Of a stretch of 40,504 bases of DNA, positions 19,270 to 34,649 are shown piece by piece. Source of the DNA: a virus (Duplodnaviria > Caudoviricetes); IMG/VR virus record IMGVR_UViG_3300022895_000228, positions 1 through 40,504 of that record; one strand, given 5' to 3'. The notes beneath the pieces are model-generated. The model was not told where the DNA came from, made no database searches, and saw only the letters and a list, made by a program, of their open reading frames with translations. Both the position numbers and the translations under genes were made by a program. Position 1 is the first letter of the stretch. Every line of letters begins with the position of its first letter.

Positions 19270-19716
19270 TTAAACAGTGAGTTGGAAGGCGCTTGCGTAG
19301 CTGCGTTGCGCATCAGCATCCAGCAGCAGACCAGCAGTAAAAGCACCGGCGGTCAATGGGCCAGTAGCTACGGTGTAGTTAACGCGCAGGTAGCGCTGCA
19401 CGCCGTGCGGAACAGTGCCGACGTAACGATAACCAACCTTAAGATCAGCAACGGCAATCGCACCTGTTTGCAGCAACGTGGTTGCACTGGCGAAATCGCT
19501 GGTCTTTGAAGTTTGCAGACTGATTGTCACAGTAGCCGAACCGCCAGCCGCGCCATTGGTTGCCACCTGGGCGAAGAATTCCACTGGGTAGCCAGGACCG
19601 ATATCACGAACATCGTTACCGGCATATAACGGTCCGAGGTCGATAACGTCGGTAGACGGCGCGGTTGCCGTAACAGCCTGCGCCTGCGAGAACATATTGA
19701 GATAGTCGAGGATCAT
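19270..19716 (-). CDS. Bbp16-like capsid cement protein
   Basis: MILD..N.FS.AQ.VTA...STDVIDLG and RYLRVNYTV motifs. Confidence 0.8.
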   Translation of the reverse strand: MILDYLNMFSQAQAVTATAPSTDVIDLGPLYAGNDVRDIGPGYPVEFFAQVATNGAAGGSATVTISLQTSKTSDFASATTLLQTGAIAVADLKVGYRYVGTVPHGVQRYLRVNYTVATGPLTAGAFTAGLLLDADAQRSYASAFQLTV

Positions 19717-21737: not shown

Positions 21738-22002
21738 GATTAGCCTCTCTGTCTTTCTCGGCCTCGGCGGCCATTTTTAAATACAAGTCCGGGCATGTGC
21801 CGAACACGTGATTGAATAAAGCAAGGCCCGCGTTGCGGTTGCCTTCGTTGAAAATTGTGCTATTCACCTCACCGGTGAACGAGATACGGAATACTCCAGC
21901 CTGGTCCAGTAGCCCCCATACAAACCTGCGCCCCTGCTCACTGCTCATTACGTGTTTCATGTCGTCAGAGCGTCGGTTACGTAACTGCTCTTGCGTCATC
22001 AT
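21703..22002 (-). CDS. Bbp19-like protein
   Basis: VMSSEQGRRFVW.LL...GVF and FNEG.RN.GL motifs, follows the portal. Confidence 0.75.
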   Translation of the reverse strand: MMTQEQLRNRRSDDMKHVMSSEQGRRFVWGLLDQAGVFRISFTGEVNSTIFNEGNRNAGLALFNHVFGTCPDLYLKMAAEAEKDREANHGNTTPESDPE

Positions 22003-23684
22003 TGCTGCGCACCTTGGCCTTGTTGCATGGCCTGTTGAATACTGGTTAGCAAGTTAGGATCTCCGGTACCGGCCTGGCTGAGTGTCTTCGCGATGTCAGC
22101 GGCCCCAGTACCAATTTGCAAGCTCTGTGCCGCTTGCTGCTGCTGAGCACGCTGCTCACGCTCTGCCTGAACCTGCTCATCGGATTTGGTGATAGTTGTC
22201 GGCACGCCAAGCATGTCGCCGTACTCATCGATCGCCTGATCAACATCAAGTTTGTCGGCAGCCTGCTGGAACCCTGCGGCGGTCATATTCCCGATAAAGC
22301 CAACGAACCTCTCGATAGAACCAATGCCCACGGCTTTCTGGGCCTGTGCCATCACGCTGGTGTATTCCACGCGCAGCGGTTGTCCTTGGAGTTCTTCCGG
22401 CGGCGGTGGCAACATGCCTCGACGGTTCATGATGTTGAAGATTCGATCAATAGCGGGGTCTAGCAACTCATCGTTCAGTCGGTCGAGCACCGGCCCGATC
22501 TGCAACATCTTCTCGTCACGCATCTCGTTGACGGCTTCGATCGGCATGCTGCGGGTGTTAATGTTGCTGAACATGTTGAACAGCGGAACGAAGTAGCATT
22601 CGTTTGTGAGCTGGCGCCCATCCTGAATACTTTCCAGCAATTCGCTAATGCGTGGGTTGATTTCGTATACCGGTTTGAAACCGCCCATATCACCTGCGCC
22701 ATTTACGTAGGACACGTCACCAGGCAGCAGGGAAAGGCGCTCATTCTTCATTGAGCTTGGCGCCATCATCGGCGGGTTAACCAGCTTGTCGATCGCCTGA
22801 TCTTTGCGCTTCTGCTGAAGTTGCAGCGCCTTAACGCCACCCAGCGCCAGAATGCCCGGACAGGATGACCCGTAAGCATCCTCGCCGTTGATGTCCCAGC
22901 GCGGTACAAGGATTGGCATTTCATCGAAACCGGACTCACTCAGTAGCTTGTCGCCAGAACCGCCCGGCTGGTAGTACACAGAGCTGTAACGCTTGTTCTT
23001 CGAATTCAGCTTGCCGGTGTCGCGGTTGGTGTTCGGCAATACTGCATGCACCACTTCAAACCAGGTTTCATAAGCGCCGGTATCCCATGCGGATTTAACG
23101 CTATCGCTGACATTCTCCAGCCCGAACTTTGCCACCAGTTGGCGGCAGGTCATGGAAAACTTGCGGAACACGGTGTCAACCTGCAGGCGGTCGCTGTTCG
23201 AGATGTAGTAACTCCCGATCGGCAGCACATGCGTGCGGATCACGTCTTCGTCATCTTCCAGTATGGAAATCGCTCCGGTGGCAAACGTGCCCAGGTAGCG
23301 ATAGAGAACGGTCAGCGACTGGTACCAGTTCGATTTGTTCATCACGTCGTTCATCAGCTCAACGACCTGAGAAAGCCACATCTTTACCGGCCAGCTATCC
23401 ATCAACTGTTTGTTCGGAGTGTTCAGGGAGAACCACGGACGCGTAGGGCTAGTGATGCCGGACAGCATGCCTGATTCGAGGGTCCGTGAAGCAAGGCCAC
23501 CGGTCGGATCAACAACCTTGGTGTTGCGCTTATTGCGCCCGGCGTCGGTGGTAAGGAATCGCCCACAGTTAGGCAGGATGAAGTCGCTCAACTCTTTCCA
23601 GTGCGAGTCATAAGACGAACGCGCAGTAACGAGCTGCGATAGCTGCTTCTCCAGAAACTGCTTGCGGGATTCCTGTTCAGCCAT
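21999..23684 (-). CDS. Portal / head-tail connector
   Basis: 561 aa; SGITSPTRPWF, PRW....E.YG and E.RDEK...GPVL.RL..ELL.P motifs. Confidence 0.93.
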   Translation of the reverse strand: MAEQESRKQFLEKQLSQLVTARSSYDSHWKELSDFILPNCGRFLTTDAGRNKRNTKVVDPTGGLASRTLESGMLSGITSPTRPWFSLNTPNKQLMDSWPVKMWLSQVVELMNDVMNKSNWYQSLTVLYRYLGTFATGAISILEDDEDVIRTHVLPIGSYYISNSDRLQVDTVFRKFSMTCRQLVAKFGLENVSDSVKSAWDTGAYETWFEVVHAVLPNTNRDTGKLNSKNKRYSSVYYQPGGSGDKLLSESGFDEMPILVPRWDINGEDAYGSSCPGILALGGVKALQLQQKRKDQAIDKLVNPPMMAPSSMKNERLSLLPGDVSYVNGAGDMGGFKPVYEINPRISELLESIQDGRQLTNECYFVPLFNMFSNINTRSMPIEAVNEMRDEKMLQIGPVLDRLNDELLDPAIDRIFNIMNRRGMLPPPPEELQGQPLRVEYTSVMAQAQKAVGIGSIERFVGFIGNMTAAGFQQAADKLDVDQAIDEYGDMLGVPTTITKSDEQVQAEREQRAQQQQAAQSLQIGTGAADIAKTLSQAGTGDPNLLTSIQQAMQQGQGAQQ

Positions 23685-23686
23685 GA

Positions 23687-23890
23687 TTAGCCACCCAACA
23701 AAGTTTTGCCGGTAGTGCTGGCCTGCCCGGTCGCACCTTGCGCACCTGTGAGGATCGTGGACTGCTGACCGGCGGCAGCGCGTCGGCGGGCTTTGTCCTT
23801 GTCGGCAGCATCAACTACTGCGGCGTCCTGCGTTTGTGGCGCAGCCTGTACCTGTGGAGCTGATGAAACCTTTGGCGAACTCATGCACAT
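23687..23890 (-). CDS. Small pre-portal virion assembly protein
   Basis: MCMSSPK start, STILTG...KTLLG end, SD GGGAGG. Confidence 0.8.
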   Translation of the reverse strand: MCMSSPKVSSAPQVQAAPQTQDAAVVDAADKDKARRRAAAGQQSTILTGAQGATGQASTTGKTLLGG

Positions 23891-23951
23891 GCGCGTAACC
23901 CTCCCAAATAATTACCAATTAAACCATATGATGTTTATTTTGACTATTTTG

Positions 23952-23988
23952 TTGACGTTATAATCAAAACAAATTACCTTTATGGTAA
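23952..23988 (+). promoter_or_regulatory. Sigma70 promoter overlapped by a Rep operator
   Basis: TTGACG(23952)-17 bp-TACCTT(23975); operator TTACCtttatGGTAA 23974-23988 covers the -10 and the predicted +1. Confidence 0.7.
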
Positions 23989-24211
23989 TCATCGAGAGCA
24001 CAAGCCGAACCAGACACTTAAACTTTTACACAGTATAAAACTGGTATCGGTGCTCTCGATGATCTATCGCGAAGCTTCATCCGAACTTAAACAGGTGCCT
24101 ATTGCTGGGGAGCATGTCGGTACTTGGTGGATGAGGCTCCGCGATAGCCGCGACCGTTATCACCCTAAATCTGTGTGTAGCACTTTGCCCGCCTTGCGCG
24201 GGCATTTTTTT
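23988..24211 (+). ncRNA. Putative structured ncRNA with tandem ACUUAAAC-bulge hairpins
   Basis: Hairpin 1 23988-24063, hairpin 2 24064-24147 with several G-U pairs, weaker hairpin 3 24156-24181; bounded by a promoter and a terminator. Confidence 0.7.
24186..24211 (+). terminator. Intrinsic terminator of the putative ncRNA
   Basis: TGCCCGC-cttgc-GCGGGCA-TTTTTTT. Confidence 0.88.
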
Positions 24212-24264
24212 ATGTACAAAACCACCTTGTTACATATAATCACATTCACACACAGACTACTAAA

Positions 24265-25080
24265 ATGATAACCATGCTTGATTTTATCAAAGACATCTTT
24301 TCTGCTTTTAAACAAAACTCTATCGAGAGAATTAGAAATCCGTTCATTGGAGCCTTTGTTTTTTCATGGCTTGGTTTCAATTGGAAGGCTTTAGCTATTC
24401 TTTTTCTAAGCGATAAAGACATAACGAAAAGAATAAGTTATATAAATGAAACTCATGATGTCGGTAGTTTTCTACTTGGACCAATATGCACGACAATACT
24501 TATATGCTGGATTCTACCAGAAATAAACAAATTCTTCACGAGATTGCAAAACAAACCTAATAGTGAAACAACAGAAATTATCATGCAATCCAAGATTGAT
24601 ATAGCAGAAAAACAACTACAGATTGCAGACATTGAAGCAAAAAAGAAACTCGCAATAAAAAGAGAGGAGAGAAACATAGAAGAAGGTGTTGAATCAATTA
24701 AAAAAGAGATAGGGAATGAAATAGAAAAAAACAAAGAAATGACAATCAAGATCGATGAGTTGTCGGCGTCACTTAAACAATCAGGACTAGCATTAAACAG
24801 TACAAACTTGAGTCTCTTGAGCGCCGAAGAAAAGATAGCAAGCCTTGCAGATAGCCTTGAAAATTCATCGAAAATACTCAATAAAAAAACAGAAGAGATA
24901 TTGGAGATGAGAAAAGAAATAGCCATCCTCAGCGGCACCATTGAAAATTTCAAAGATGCTAACAAAAGCATGGCCAAAGAATATGAGCATATATTCCATC
25001 TATCTGGAGATAGATTAACAGTGAGAGGTTCTGCTCTATCGATGCTTAAAGAAATAAACGTAGATGACATACCTTTTTGA
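24265..25080 (+). CDS. Low-GC moron: two-TM, coiled-coil membrane protein
   Basis: ERIRNPFIGAFVFSWLGFNWK N-terminal motif, two hydrophobic segments, long coiled coil; own -10 TATAAT at 24235-24240; opposite strand to terL and portal. Confidence 0.8.
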   Translation: MITMLDFIKDIFSAFKQNSIERIRNPFIGAFVFSWLGFNWKALAILFLSDKDITKRISYINETHDVGSFLLGPICTTILICWILPEINKFFTRLQNKPNSETTEIIMQSKIDIAEKQLQIADIEAKKKLAIKREERNIEEGVESIKKEIGNEIEKNKEMTIKIDELSASLKQSGLALNSTNLSLLSAEEKIASLADSLENSSKILNKKTEEILEMRKEIAILSGTIENFKDANKSMAKEYEHIFHLSGDRLTVRGSALSMLKEINVDDIPF

Positions 25081-25099: not shown

Positions 25100-26571
25100 T
25101 TATCCATATGGATCATATTCTGTGACCACAGAGCCGCGCTTCTCGCCGGGAAGTGCGTGCTGGCGTTTTGAAACTGGGAAGGCAAATGTTAGAGCCAGCG
25201 CATCAGCATCGTTAGGGGATCTGCCTAAAATCTCCTTCAATTCTTCTTTATCCTGTAGCTCTTTTTTGCTGTCCTTCAGGCGAACCCTGTACTCTGGTGC
25301 TGATAATTCATCAGCCACGTTTTGGTCAGGCAGTGATCCGCCATCTTTAAGCCAGGTTTTAACGGCGTTGTACATCTCTCCACGCTTCCTAGCCATCTCA
25401 GGGTCGGTTGATGCCCCGCCAAATTGGATTAGCTGCCATGCTCGGCCCCAATTATCACCGACAGATTTCAGGCCGGTACCATACCCATAATCGATAAATA
25501 CGGCATCAGCGTGGTACTGATCCTCAAAGTCGGCCACAATTTTCGCAAACCAGACGTCATCAGTTGTTCTTTGCCACTCGCCAAGCTTCTTGGTGTGCAG
25601 ACCTTGCCGCAGGTAGATAACAGCCTTATCTTTGCCACCGTGAGCCGGGTCGACACCAATCACCACTGCAGCGTGCTGAACTTGATGAGGGGTAATCACT
25701 CGGCCAACAGCAGCATTGGTAAGGCTGGACGGGATAAATTGGTTTTCAGATGCATCAGGGAAGATGCCACGAACACGAACCTTAACAAAGTCGCTGTCCT
25801 CGCCGTAGTCCTCTACCCATTTATCCAACTGAACTTTGTTCGTGCCCTCTACCGTGCGGCTGTCGATCTGGGCATGATTCCAGCGATGTCGATATTTGCG
25901 GAAGCATTCTCTGAATCGTCCTGTGTTACGCGTCGGGTTTCCGAAGGCCACCCATATAATTTCAGTGTCTTCGTCTGTCAGCGCACCCTCTGCAACCTCC
26001 CACACCTTATCGGCAATGTTGGAGGCCTCATCAAACACCACAATGATACGCTTACGCTCGTTATGCAGACCTGCGAATGCCTCCGTGTTGTGCTCACTCC
26101 ACGGTATTGTATCGGCACGCCATAGCTTATCGTGCCCCGGATCGGTACTGTGCATCGCCGTTGCGGTACAGTTGAACCAATCGCTATTGATGCCATCCTT
26201 GACCACTTGATCACCTCAGGCCACGTCTTGGTTATCAGCTGCTTCTCAGTGTTGGCAGTCACCACCACCTTGCAATCTTCACATGTAGACATGCCCCAAT
26301 TGATGAGCATTGAGATAAACGCTGACTTGCCGATCCCATGCCCTGATGCACGAGCAATCATCAGTGGCTGGTGCCTGGTTGTAGGGTTTTTAAGATGGTT
26401 TCCAATCTCGCTAAACGCGCTTGCCTGCCATTTTCGCGGTCCGGTTGCGTGAGCTAGCTCGGTTCCAGGCTCTCCCCACGGGAAGGCATAGAGGGCGAAG
26501 CCAAGCGGGTCATGCGTAAAGCCTGCAATATCTTCGATCAGTTCCTGTTGGAGATCTGCTTGGTCAGTCAT
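25100..26571 (-). pseudogene. terL: Terminase large subunit, split by a 1-bp frameshift near 26191
   Basis: Walker A ASGHGIGKS in ORF 26571-25978; Walker B VVFDEAS and nuclease motifs GVDPA and SPNDADALALTF in ORF 26206-25100; one added base fuses them into ~490 aa. Confidence 0.9.
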
Positions 26572-34452: not shown

Positions 34453-34649
34453 TTACCATTTTGGTAACTTTTTATATTTATAGCTATTGACCAACAGCCG
34501 TTTATGGGTAATCATTACCTCAAGACGTTACCAATCTGGTAATGATGCTCTTTAACAATCAGACAGGAATTGAAGCACCGCGATGATGCGGTGACATTGC
34601 CGGGCATTCCCGCGCATAACCACGCCCATAACAGTTACCAAATTGGTAA
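34453..34649 (+). promoter_or_regulatory. Early promoter with three Rep operators and a boxA/boxB-like site
   Basis: Operators at 34453, 34528, 34635; TTGACC 34487; boxA TGCTCTTTAACAAT 34546-34559; hairpin CACCGC-gatgat-GCGGTG 34576-34593. Confidence 0.75.

Follow-up and report, generated by a model that had tools for sequence, protein, structure and literature searches.

What is encoded in the gap between the terminase gene terL and the portal gene of epsilon15-like phages, and on which strand does it act? We addressed this question in the IMG/VR virus record IMGVR_UViG_3300022895_000228 (Duplodnaviria; Caudoviricetes), whose full 40,504 nucleotides (nt) are referred to here as the window. 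A gene map from PHROGs and Pfam shows that the window is the record of a temperate, epsilon15-like podovirus. By portal similarity, the nearest named phages are Sodalis phage phiSG1 (75%) and the epsilon15 group, genus Uetakevirus (about 60%). An earlier reading of the sequence, the first-pass annotation, had assigned the locus to the terL–portal intergenic region of such a phage, and the portal similarity and the gene map show that it was right. Here an RNA unit and an AT-rich open reading frame (ORF) of 271 amino acids (aa) lie on the plus strand, opposite to their neighbors, between a small gene and terL. Our analysis confirms that this RNA is real and that it is a member of no described RNA family. 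In kind, it belongs with the phage-encoded small structured RNAs under lysogeny control. Known non-coding RNAs of phages other than tRNAs are few and come mostly from single model phages.

From promoter to terminator, the RNA measures about 225 nt on the plus strand. RNAfold assigns the 241-nt stretch a free energy of −97.2 kcal/mol, compared with −63.7 ± 4.1 for shuffled sequences (z-score −8.2; 0 of 200 shuffles fold as well), and the predicted structure consists of exactly two back-to-back hairpins, HP1 (hairpin 1) and HP2. The minus strand also folds, less well (z −6.4). HP1 stands on a perfect stem of 14 base pairs (bp), continued by the helices CCGA/TCGG and ACCAG/CTGGT, and its apical region carries the bulge ACACTTAAAC, in which the 8-mer ACTTAAAC occupies positions 24016–24023. 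The bulge of HP2 reads GAACTTAAAC, and the same 8-mer lies at 24085–24092. Scored as inverted repeats, HP1 and HP2 give 14 nt at 100% and 19 nt at 89%, respectively, and the terminator stem (24186–24204) comprises 7 pairs, 6 of which are G–C. The first-pass annotation had placed the hairpin boundaries, both 8-mers, the terminator, the operator, and the promoter elements correctly, and folding recovered the two hairpins that it had drawn. Two of its structural proposals fared less well. A third small hairpin is weak in the fold, and its region varies or is deleted in relatives; the notion that HP1 and HP2 are diverged duplicates is weakly supported (global alignment z 2.7, with 7 of 1000 shuffles as good).

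Relatives were collected with a portal search of IMG/VR, which returned 33 loci (numbered with the prefix L), 24 of them with a homologue of the 374-nt intergenic region at 72–100% identity. All of these homologues sit at the same place and in the same orientation. Pattern scans added metagenome copies and one genome record, for a total of 25 distinct RNA sequences of 232–548 nt, counted from the first base of the operator to the end of the T-run. HP1 was aligned across 25 sequences (23 distinct) and HP2 across 13 (11 distinct). In the HP1 alignment, 99.0% of the 483 cells in 21 pairs are paired, compared with 29–51% when the 3′ partner is slid by 1–3 columns; for the 29 pairs of HP2 the values are 95.9% and 29–49%. 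Two HP1 pairs changed on both sides (A–U to G–C and C–G to U–A), both in the L020/L030 lineage, and seven others vary on one side only, always through G–U. Two HP2 pairs changed on both sides. Double-sided changes occur in the terminator stem of relatives as well, where it reads, for example, GCCCTCC/GGAGGGC or GCCTCC/GGGGGC. Pairing is maintained in both hairpins, and independent double changes are few.

The wobble pairs settle the strand. Within paired columns, G–U cells outnumber A–C cells by 84 to 2 in HP1 and by 48 to 5 in HP2, or 132 to 7 in total. The helices are therefore kept on the plus strand, because the minus strand would carry A–C mismatches at these positions, and the functional strand is plus. 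The first-pass remark that G–U pairs work only on the plus strand thus extends from the window to its relatives, and its broader proposal of a plus-strand non-coding unit running from promoter to terminator is supported by the fold, by the maintained pairing, and by this strand test. Outside the hairpins, an alignment of 31 tails shows ACCGT and CTGTGTG(T/C)A in every one, including those of the distant loci L026–L029, while the stretch between them varies or is deleted; CTGTGTGTA recurs in 31 of 31, with a single change in one of them. Several other readings of the locus were inspected and set aside. Long-range pairings of the HP1 loop CUACACAG with the tail element CUGUGUGUAG, and of the 5′ end with GUUAUC, were examined by eye and are not kept in L020/L030 or L026–L029. 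A coding reading from the ATG at 23982 was rejected: this codon precedes or coincides with the predicted start, lacks a ribosome site, and opens short frames that differ in length and sequence among relatives.

The signals that bracket these hairpins are also kept. RNA synthesis is predicted to start at about 23984–23987. A consensus promoter scan does not list the RNA promoter because its −10 element, TACCTT, is weak, matching TATAAT at 3 of 6 positions. The arrangement TTGAC(G/A)-17-TACCTT is nevertheless kept in all 25 aligned relatives, in the distant L026–L029, and in epsilon15 itself (TTGACA-17-TACCTT), and this conservation, together with the RNA-library data described below, is consistent with a genuine promoter. 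The operator over its −10 and start region, TTACCTTTATGGTAA, is an instance of TTACC-N5-GGTAA, a 15-bp motif with 10 exact sites in the window against 0.67 expected, and with two further sites at one mismatch; 0 of 100 shuffles reach 12. The operator sites include the immunity region around the cI-like gene, the terS ribosome site, and other units (Table 1), and it seems that one repressor guards early, late, and accessory units directly. The GenBank record of epsilon15 annotates the equivalent sites before terS and at the terL–portal locus as 'repressor, lysogeny'. Repressor control of the RNA unit, as first proposed from the window alone, is thus a prediction well supported by sequence: the motif overlapping −10/+1 is a phage-wide operator that is common to the immunity region. 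This shared operator predicts that the RNA would be silent in lysogens and made at once upon infection or induction. The first bases of the RNA promoter (GGTAATCATTGAGG in relatives) also resemble the stretch after the operator at 34635 (GGTAATCAATTGAGG), which suggests a duplicated promoter cassette.

A separate feature of the early region concerns the operator at 34528. Directly after it (window 34528–34600, plus strand) lies a perfect TGCTCTTTAACAA box, the only one in the phage and equal to the rrn-type boxA, followed by the hairpin CACCGC-GATGAT-GCGGTG; together they form a nut-like antitermination site.

At gathering thresholds, Rfam 15 gives no match in the window and none in 12 related loci, in keeping with the first-pass failure to recognize a family; the best sub-threshold matches, such as Trp_leader (25.1 bits against a threshold of 41), cover only the terminator end. 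The RNA is also narrowly distributed. Pattern scans of IMG/VR found HP1 in 19 stretches and HP2 in 14, all from this clade and from contigs already found by the portal or operator searches. By blastn with the 374-nt intergenic region, neither hairpin occurs in 50,697 phage records, and the region has no match in 5,426 E. coli genomes. A scan of genome contigs for the operator followed by the start of HP1 gave 11 hits, of which 10 are chance matches in unrelated organisms. The remaining hit, L039, is genuine; among species-representative genome contigs only this one, under the record title Pseudomonas lundensis strain I31, has both operator and HP1. Relatives with 47% portal identity have no such RNA locus, and the terL–portal slot of phiSG1 holds other genes instead of the RNA array.

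RNA libraries contain the locus. Eight soil metatranscriptome runs, listed as eight studies of one year and habitat and probably from one campaign, were selected using this very stretch, and in 8 of 8 the contigs over the RNA are identical to the window. Their left ends over the RNA fall at 24005, 24004, 23986, 23997, 24005, 24039, 24050, and 24006, and none of the eight runs' contigs covers the promoter region (23905–23985). In six runs, contigs cross the terminator into the 271-aa ORF, and in one run the contig stops at 24218. Uncovered stretches and contig depths were not used as measures of expression. Short of proof, these contigs are consistent with a start near 23984–23987 and with a leaky terminator.

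Comparison of the relatives reveals that the two hairpins of the window are one version of a modular array. Throughout the 25 clade sequences, the promoter with its operator and HP1 are constant at one end, a CUGUGUGUA tail (containing both ACCGT and CTGTGTG(T/C)A) and the terminator at the other, and it is the middle that changes. HP2 alone fills it in the window and 10 others. Elsewhere it is occupied by module C, a long hairpin (CAACAGGTAAGAGCA ... TGCTCTTTCCGTTG) with a hypervariable interior of 45–110 nt, by module C together with module D, or by up to four modules, reaching 548 nt in L009. Of 28 representative loci, 12 lack HP2 and have other modules in its stead. The idea of a mini-array, raised in the first-pass annotation, is thereby realized in the relatives, which carry one to four swappable modules behind the same promoter and HP1. 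The stem of module C has changed on both sides, from GGTAAGAGCA/TGCTCTTTCC to GGTAATGGCA/TGCCATTACC in L039, where HP1 stands next to a module C with these compensatory changes. In L023, L016, L009, L010, and L011, the interior of module C is tRNA-like, with a perfect T-arm (CAAGG-TTCGATT-CCTTG). As a canonical tRNA, the tRNA-like insert with the GGTTCGATTCC arm (L023, L016, L009, L010) was rejected by ARAGORN and Rfam, and neither the window nor any of 29 related loci contains a tRNA by ARAGORN. The distant L026–L029 (portal identity 66–67%) lack HP1 and keep the promoter, operator, modules C and D, tail, and terminator; with a further conserved module, their arrays come to 552–647 nt.

Module D, which takes the slot of HP2 in sister phages, is found in L009, L010/L011, L014, L016, L017, L021, L023, L024, and L026–L029. 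Its outer stem is free in sequence and has changed on both sides, and a variable insert of 40–200 nt lies between two invariant hairpins, GCGC-AGGCUGAU-GCGC and GCCGG-AGAUCAGCA-CCGGC, the loops of which are complementary (GCUGAU/AUCAGC). A blastn search with the L028 array located modules C and D in 256 records of the phage collection, from Salmonella, Klebsiella, and Escherichia phages that include P1, HK620, lambdoid, Stx, and large Klebsiella phages. The typical match has two conserved ends, 95–100% identical, around an unrelated interior. Module D often neighbors tRNA genes: in Klebsiella phage KP591P1, 5 nt separate its end from tRNA-Ser, and in phage IME207 and Escherichia phage swi2 it also lies in front of tRNA genes. 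Its 5′ core occurs in about 1700 IMG/VR stretches and has no Rfam match. The window itself lacks the core (GCGC-AGGCTGAT-GCGC, GCCGG-AGATCAGCA-CCGGC) at up to three mismatches, and a scan for module D yields one chance-level match, at 19668.

The shared 8-mer, which had looked like a conserved feature of the window, proved variable. Of 25 HP1 sequences, nine carry ACTTAAAC unchanged, three carry one-base variants, and the other 13 have the allele CTTCTATCAC. L020/L030, the most divergent HP1 lineage, keeps ACTTAAAC though the rest of its apical region differs. Among 13 HP2 sequences, the bulge is ACTTAAAC in five, a one-base deletion of it in one, ACTTAATC in five, and TGTTAATC in two; where both hairpins were aligned (13 sequences), just three carry ACTTAAAC in each. 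HP1 alleles are mixed with different HP2 types and modules (e.g., L004 and L017), which places recombination at a finer scale than whole modules. In the window, a third same-strand copy lies at 24771 inside the downstream ORF, giving three matches against 0.81 expected; at least as many occur in 6 of 100 shuffled sequences. The motif may be recognized by a protein or a nuclease, or it may confer specificity for targets in the host.

The 271-aa ORF behind the terminator has a hydrophobic N-terminal part and a long coiled-coil-like part, and its G+C content is 32–35% compared with about 54% around it. It gave one sub-threshold match in Pfam, only weak coiled-coil matches in PADLOC, with no toxin or defence family, PHROGs families of unknown function, and only hypothetical proteins in the ESM Atlas. 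We then placed both the RNA and the end of terL in 26 loci. In four of them (L006, L007, L013, and L014), 0–49 bp without an ORF separate the terminator from the terL stop, and the RNA is intact, which makes the RNA a gene of its own. The remaining 22 have one to three ORFs of differing families behind the terminator. In 16 of these 22, only 10–19 nt separate the T-run from the first ORF; a promoter would not fit there, and the ORF could therefore be expressed only by read-through.

What the RNA does is a less certain matter. The function that we favor, at somewhat under an even chance, is that of a trans-acting, stable RNA that works by shape as a decoy or sponge, with its terminator metering the downstream cargo. 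Four observations point this way: the array slot also accommodates tRNA-shaped modules, the stems are conserved while tips and bulges diversify, the RNA is retained in phages that lack cargo, and no pairing target was found in the phage. Under this decoy reading, the repressor would silence the unit in lysogens, and the RNA would appear early after infection or induction. A 5′ hairpin starting 1–4 nt from the end, together with the terminator, would make it long-lived. RNase III or RNase E (ribonucleases III and E) might cut the helices of about 20 bp to release hairpin units, whose shape would let them occupy, as decoys or sponges, a host protein that binds RNA or serves in defence; the tRNA-shaped modules that replace HP2 in sister phages are proposed to play the same role. 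The leaky terminator would pass a small share of transcripts into the variable accessory gene or genes.

Several points weigh against the decoy reading. The relatives are close kin with few independent events, and both HP1 double changes stem from the single lineage L020/L030; the alignments show maintained pairing rather than rich covariation. HP1 and HP2 are confined to the clade, and their tie to tRNA-cluster modules is by position only. The bulge motif, which had suggested a common protein site, is unconserved, and the invariant tail beside a U7 terminator resembles a base-pairing small RNA more than a decoy. In most phages, a role of the RNA as leader of a variable accessory operon is real at least in part. 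The RNA-library contigs give neither strand nor level, come from runs chosen with the stretch, and could reflect DNA carry-over; the discrete RNA, its ends, and its processing are predictions from sequence, and any partner is hypothetical.

A bolder form of the decoy reading, which we regard as speculative and rather improbable, treats the locus as an 'RNA cassette array' with which epsilon15-like phages and, through shared modules, many enterobacterial phages would deploy anti-defence decoys. An early promoter, a fixed HP1 leader, and the tail would frame a slot for folded modules shuffled by recombination. Scaffold stems would be conserved while tips and bulges change fast, as in the two HP1 alleles, HP2, and the tRNA-shaped modules, and each module would disarm a different host defence that targets RNA or tRNA. 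Were this so, the array would be the RNA-level counterpart of protein anti-defence islands.

Two alternatives to the decoy reading deserve attention, each of which we hold to be unlikely. One is that the RNA is a cis-acting leader, in which HP1 modifies or pauses RNA polymerase, as in put-like antitermination, or sets terminator read-through for the accessory genes. Promoter, structured RNA, terminator, and ORF do follow in series in 22 of 26 loci, 16 of them with the short spacing described above and no promoter of the ORF's own, contigs of 6 of 8 runs cross the terminator, and an antitermination signal exists elsewhere in the phage, at the TGCTCTTTAACAA box and hairpin after the 34528 operator. 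Against a leader of this kind, the RNA is intact in 4 of 26 loci that have nothing behind it, and the exchangeable middle modules and their presence in the tRNA clusters of unrelated phages would go unexplained. Moreover, the window RNA has no boxA-like site, and its cargo gene has a promoter-like site of its own. The 3′ strand of HP1 contains TGCTCTC, for which a boxA-like reading was rejected: this stretch is paired, and the true TGCTCTTTAACAA is found in the early operon only.

The other alternative, also a minority view in our estimation, is that the RNA regulates by base pairing, with the CUGUGUGUA tail and the U7 terminator forming an Hfq-type small RNA, cut out of the 3′ part of the transcript, that would repress or activate mRNAs of host or phage, or with the bulges seeding antisense contacts, as the first-pass annotation proposed; the hairpins would then be stabilizing or processing elements. 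Even where all upstream modules differ, CTGTGTG(T/C)A and ACCGT persist in 31 of 31 tails, followed by a terminator with U7, so that CTGTGTGTA and T7 would make up the conserved seed without stable pairing and the U-run of at least six that characterize an Hfq-type 3′ module. The bulge of HP1 comes in two common alleles (12 and 13 of 25), as expected of specificity loops. In addition, the tail motif TCTGTGTGT (24170–24178) has a perfect 9-nt complement, ACACACAGA, at 24248–24256 in the 5′ leader of the 271-aa ORF. Neither the L026 homologue of this gene nor any of the 16 short-leader loci has the complement; by our estimate, chance alone would give about 0.3 such 9-mer matches in 400 nt, and the match may be a coincidence. 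Nor were other partners found in the phage: loops, bulges, and tail tested against its 51 translation starts give duplex energies within the shuffled background, TACACACAG-like sites, complementary to the tail, are not enriched (9 vs 6.4 expected), and GTTTAAGT, the complement of the 8-mer, occurs nowhere in the phage apart from the antisense of the locus itself. The same results speak against self-targeting in the style of P4 CI or P1 C4, which had been suggested by analogy.

A third alternative comes from epsilon15, whose reference record (NC_004775.2) reads a 100-nt stretch at the same locus (2720–2819, late strand) as 'protein_bind RNaseIII, mRNA processing'. Applied to the window, the hairpins would be RNase III sites of the late minus-strand terL–portal mRNA or, in a variant, the plus-strand RNA would be antisense to the late transcript. 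The good fold of the minus strand fits this proposal, and the substitutions do not: no helix is maintained on the late strand, where the G–U pairs that dominate the alignments become mismatches, and the promoter, operator, and one-way terminator all face plus. The gap in contig coverage at 23905–23985, found in 8 of 8 runs, is also unlike a late transcript running through, though this is a weak hint. The strand test thus argues against RNase III processing in the window, and we consider it very improbable. Finally, we give almost no credence to a DNA-level element without RNA function, in which the hairpins are recombination or insertion sites at a gene-exchange hotspot, for while close relatives have different cargo ORFs, exchange of modules takes place at module borders, and modules C and D look like inverted repeats with variable interiors, a conserved promoter and terminator bracket the hairpins, contigs are present in RNA libraries, wobble-only substitutions preserve pairing on one strand, and the PHROGs map associates no recombinase with the locus.

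Epsilon15 remains the closest precedent. Its terL–gp3 region has, in the same layout, a repressor operator (ATTACCTTTTAGGTAAT) over TTGACA-17-TACCTT, a non-coding stretch, a rho-independent terminator, and a reverse-strand accessory ORF starting a few bases after the T-run. In contrast, no RNA gene is named there, and the non-coding stretch is 380 nt of other sequence with a fold z of −1.8. The architecture is therefore partly on record in epsilon15 without an RNA gene having been recognized, and the modular array between terL and portal is new; our result corrects the reading of this locus in the reference record as a late-mRNA RNase III site. Literature searches on epsilon15 with RNase III or repressor, on Uetakevirus with small RNAs, and on the module D core returned nothing on this locus; the epsilon15 genome paper was not covered by them. 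Passages of the ZX5 paper (PMC9782041) deal with repressor and anti-repressor proteins rather than with this locus.

Among better-known RNAs, the species 1 and 2 RNAs of T4 are stable RNAs from a phage tRNA cluster. Like module D, they are small, highly structured, promoter-distal, and of unknown function in phages; HP1 and HP2, by comparison, are plain bulged hairpins without the module D core and are restricted to one phage clade. P1 C4 and P4 CI target sites complementary to them within their own transcript, and C4 is a family in Rfam. The window RNA resembles them as a small structured RNA of a temperate phage with exposed loops, made from the leader of a regulated operon, and differs in having neither an Rfam match nor a complementary site in the phage. 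The put RNAs of HK022 form two stem–loops behind an early promoter, ahead of terminators and genes. Two stem–loops directly behind an early promoter are also seen here, but HP1 and HP2 together are more than twice as long, HP2 is exchangeable, and the RNA lacks downstream genes in 4 of 26 loci. Type III toxin–antitoxin systems such as ToxIN combine a promoter, structured RNA units in direct tandem repeats, a leaky terminator, and a protein gene. The order of parts is the same in the window. Tandem Repeats Finder detects no tandem repeat in the RNA locus, however, the downstream gene varies or is missing and belongs to no toxin or defence family, and neither the direct tandem repeats nor the endoribonuclease toxin gene that mark this class were found.

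These comparisons indicate what is at stake. In its packaging–head operon, a whole clade keeps a gene for an RNA under predicted repressor control, whose modules are exchanged with RNA elements that neighbor the tRNA genes of hundreds of unrelated enterobacterial phages; Rfam has no entry for any of them. If these RNAs do serve as decoys or regulators in the first minutes of infection, they would represent an unexplored layer of phage–host conflict and would also provide compact, very stable RNA scaffolds.

Table 1 The RNA unit, operator sites, and surrounding genes (window coordinates, except where a locus is named)
Feature	Position	Strand	Remarks
RNA promoter	23952–23980	+	−35 TTGACG 23952–23957, 17-nt spacer, −10 TACCTT 23975–23980
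Operator, TTACCTTTATGGTAA	23974–23988		TTACC-N5-GGTAA over −10 and start; predicted CI-type repressor site
HP1	23988–24063	+	76-nt hairpin; always first element of the RNA
HP2	24064–24147	+	84-nt hairpin; swappable module; when present, always last before the tail
Tail	24148–24185	+	Not stably paired in predicted fold; GACCGTTA 24152–24159, CTGTGTGTA 24171–24179
Intrinsic terminator	24186–24211	+	GCCCGCC/GGCGGGC stem, then T7; terminator scan
Accessory gene	24213–25080	+	Promoter-like TGTACA-16-TATAAT 24213–24240; 271-aa ORF 24265–25080
Operator	33465		Between cro-like and cI-like genes
Operators	34453, 34528, 34635		Early leftward region, beside cI-like gene
Operators	31192, 31210		
Operator	27124		Over terS ribosome site, after terminator-like hairpin
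Operators	5308, 6809		
Portal	21999–23684	−	PF12236, E 2.6e-159
Small 67-aa gene	23687–23890	−	
terL	25100–26571	−	terS also present
cI-like repressor, 198 aa	33531–34127	+	
cro-like gene, replication and recombination genes, integrase			PHROGs/Pfam
Lysis and tail-fibre genes			PHROGs/Pfam
T7-like internal virion and tail tube proteins, major head protein, protease			PHROGs/Pfam
Module D, further examples	L111 2501–2629; L112 2501–2604; L113–L233		

The genes on either side of the RNA unit show two further features. On the portal side, a candidate divergent promoter on the minus strand (23908–23946, TAGTCA-17-TTTAAT), read in the sequence, might serve the 67-aa gene and portal; beside it lies the operator half-site ATAATTACCA (23908–23917), an inverted match to the operator. 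In three RNA-library runs, the contigs that come from the portal side extend as far as 23904, 23898, and 23893, and these ends hint that terL and portal are on separate transcripts. On the other side, terL is split into two overlapping frames of 197 aa (25978–26571) and 368 aa (25100–26206). Both match the same terminase families, and in five relatives whose terL is complete it forms one ORF of 490–495 aa; the split is a frameshift and reflects either an error in sequencing or a gene that is defective.

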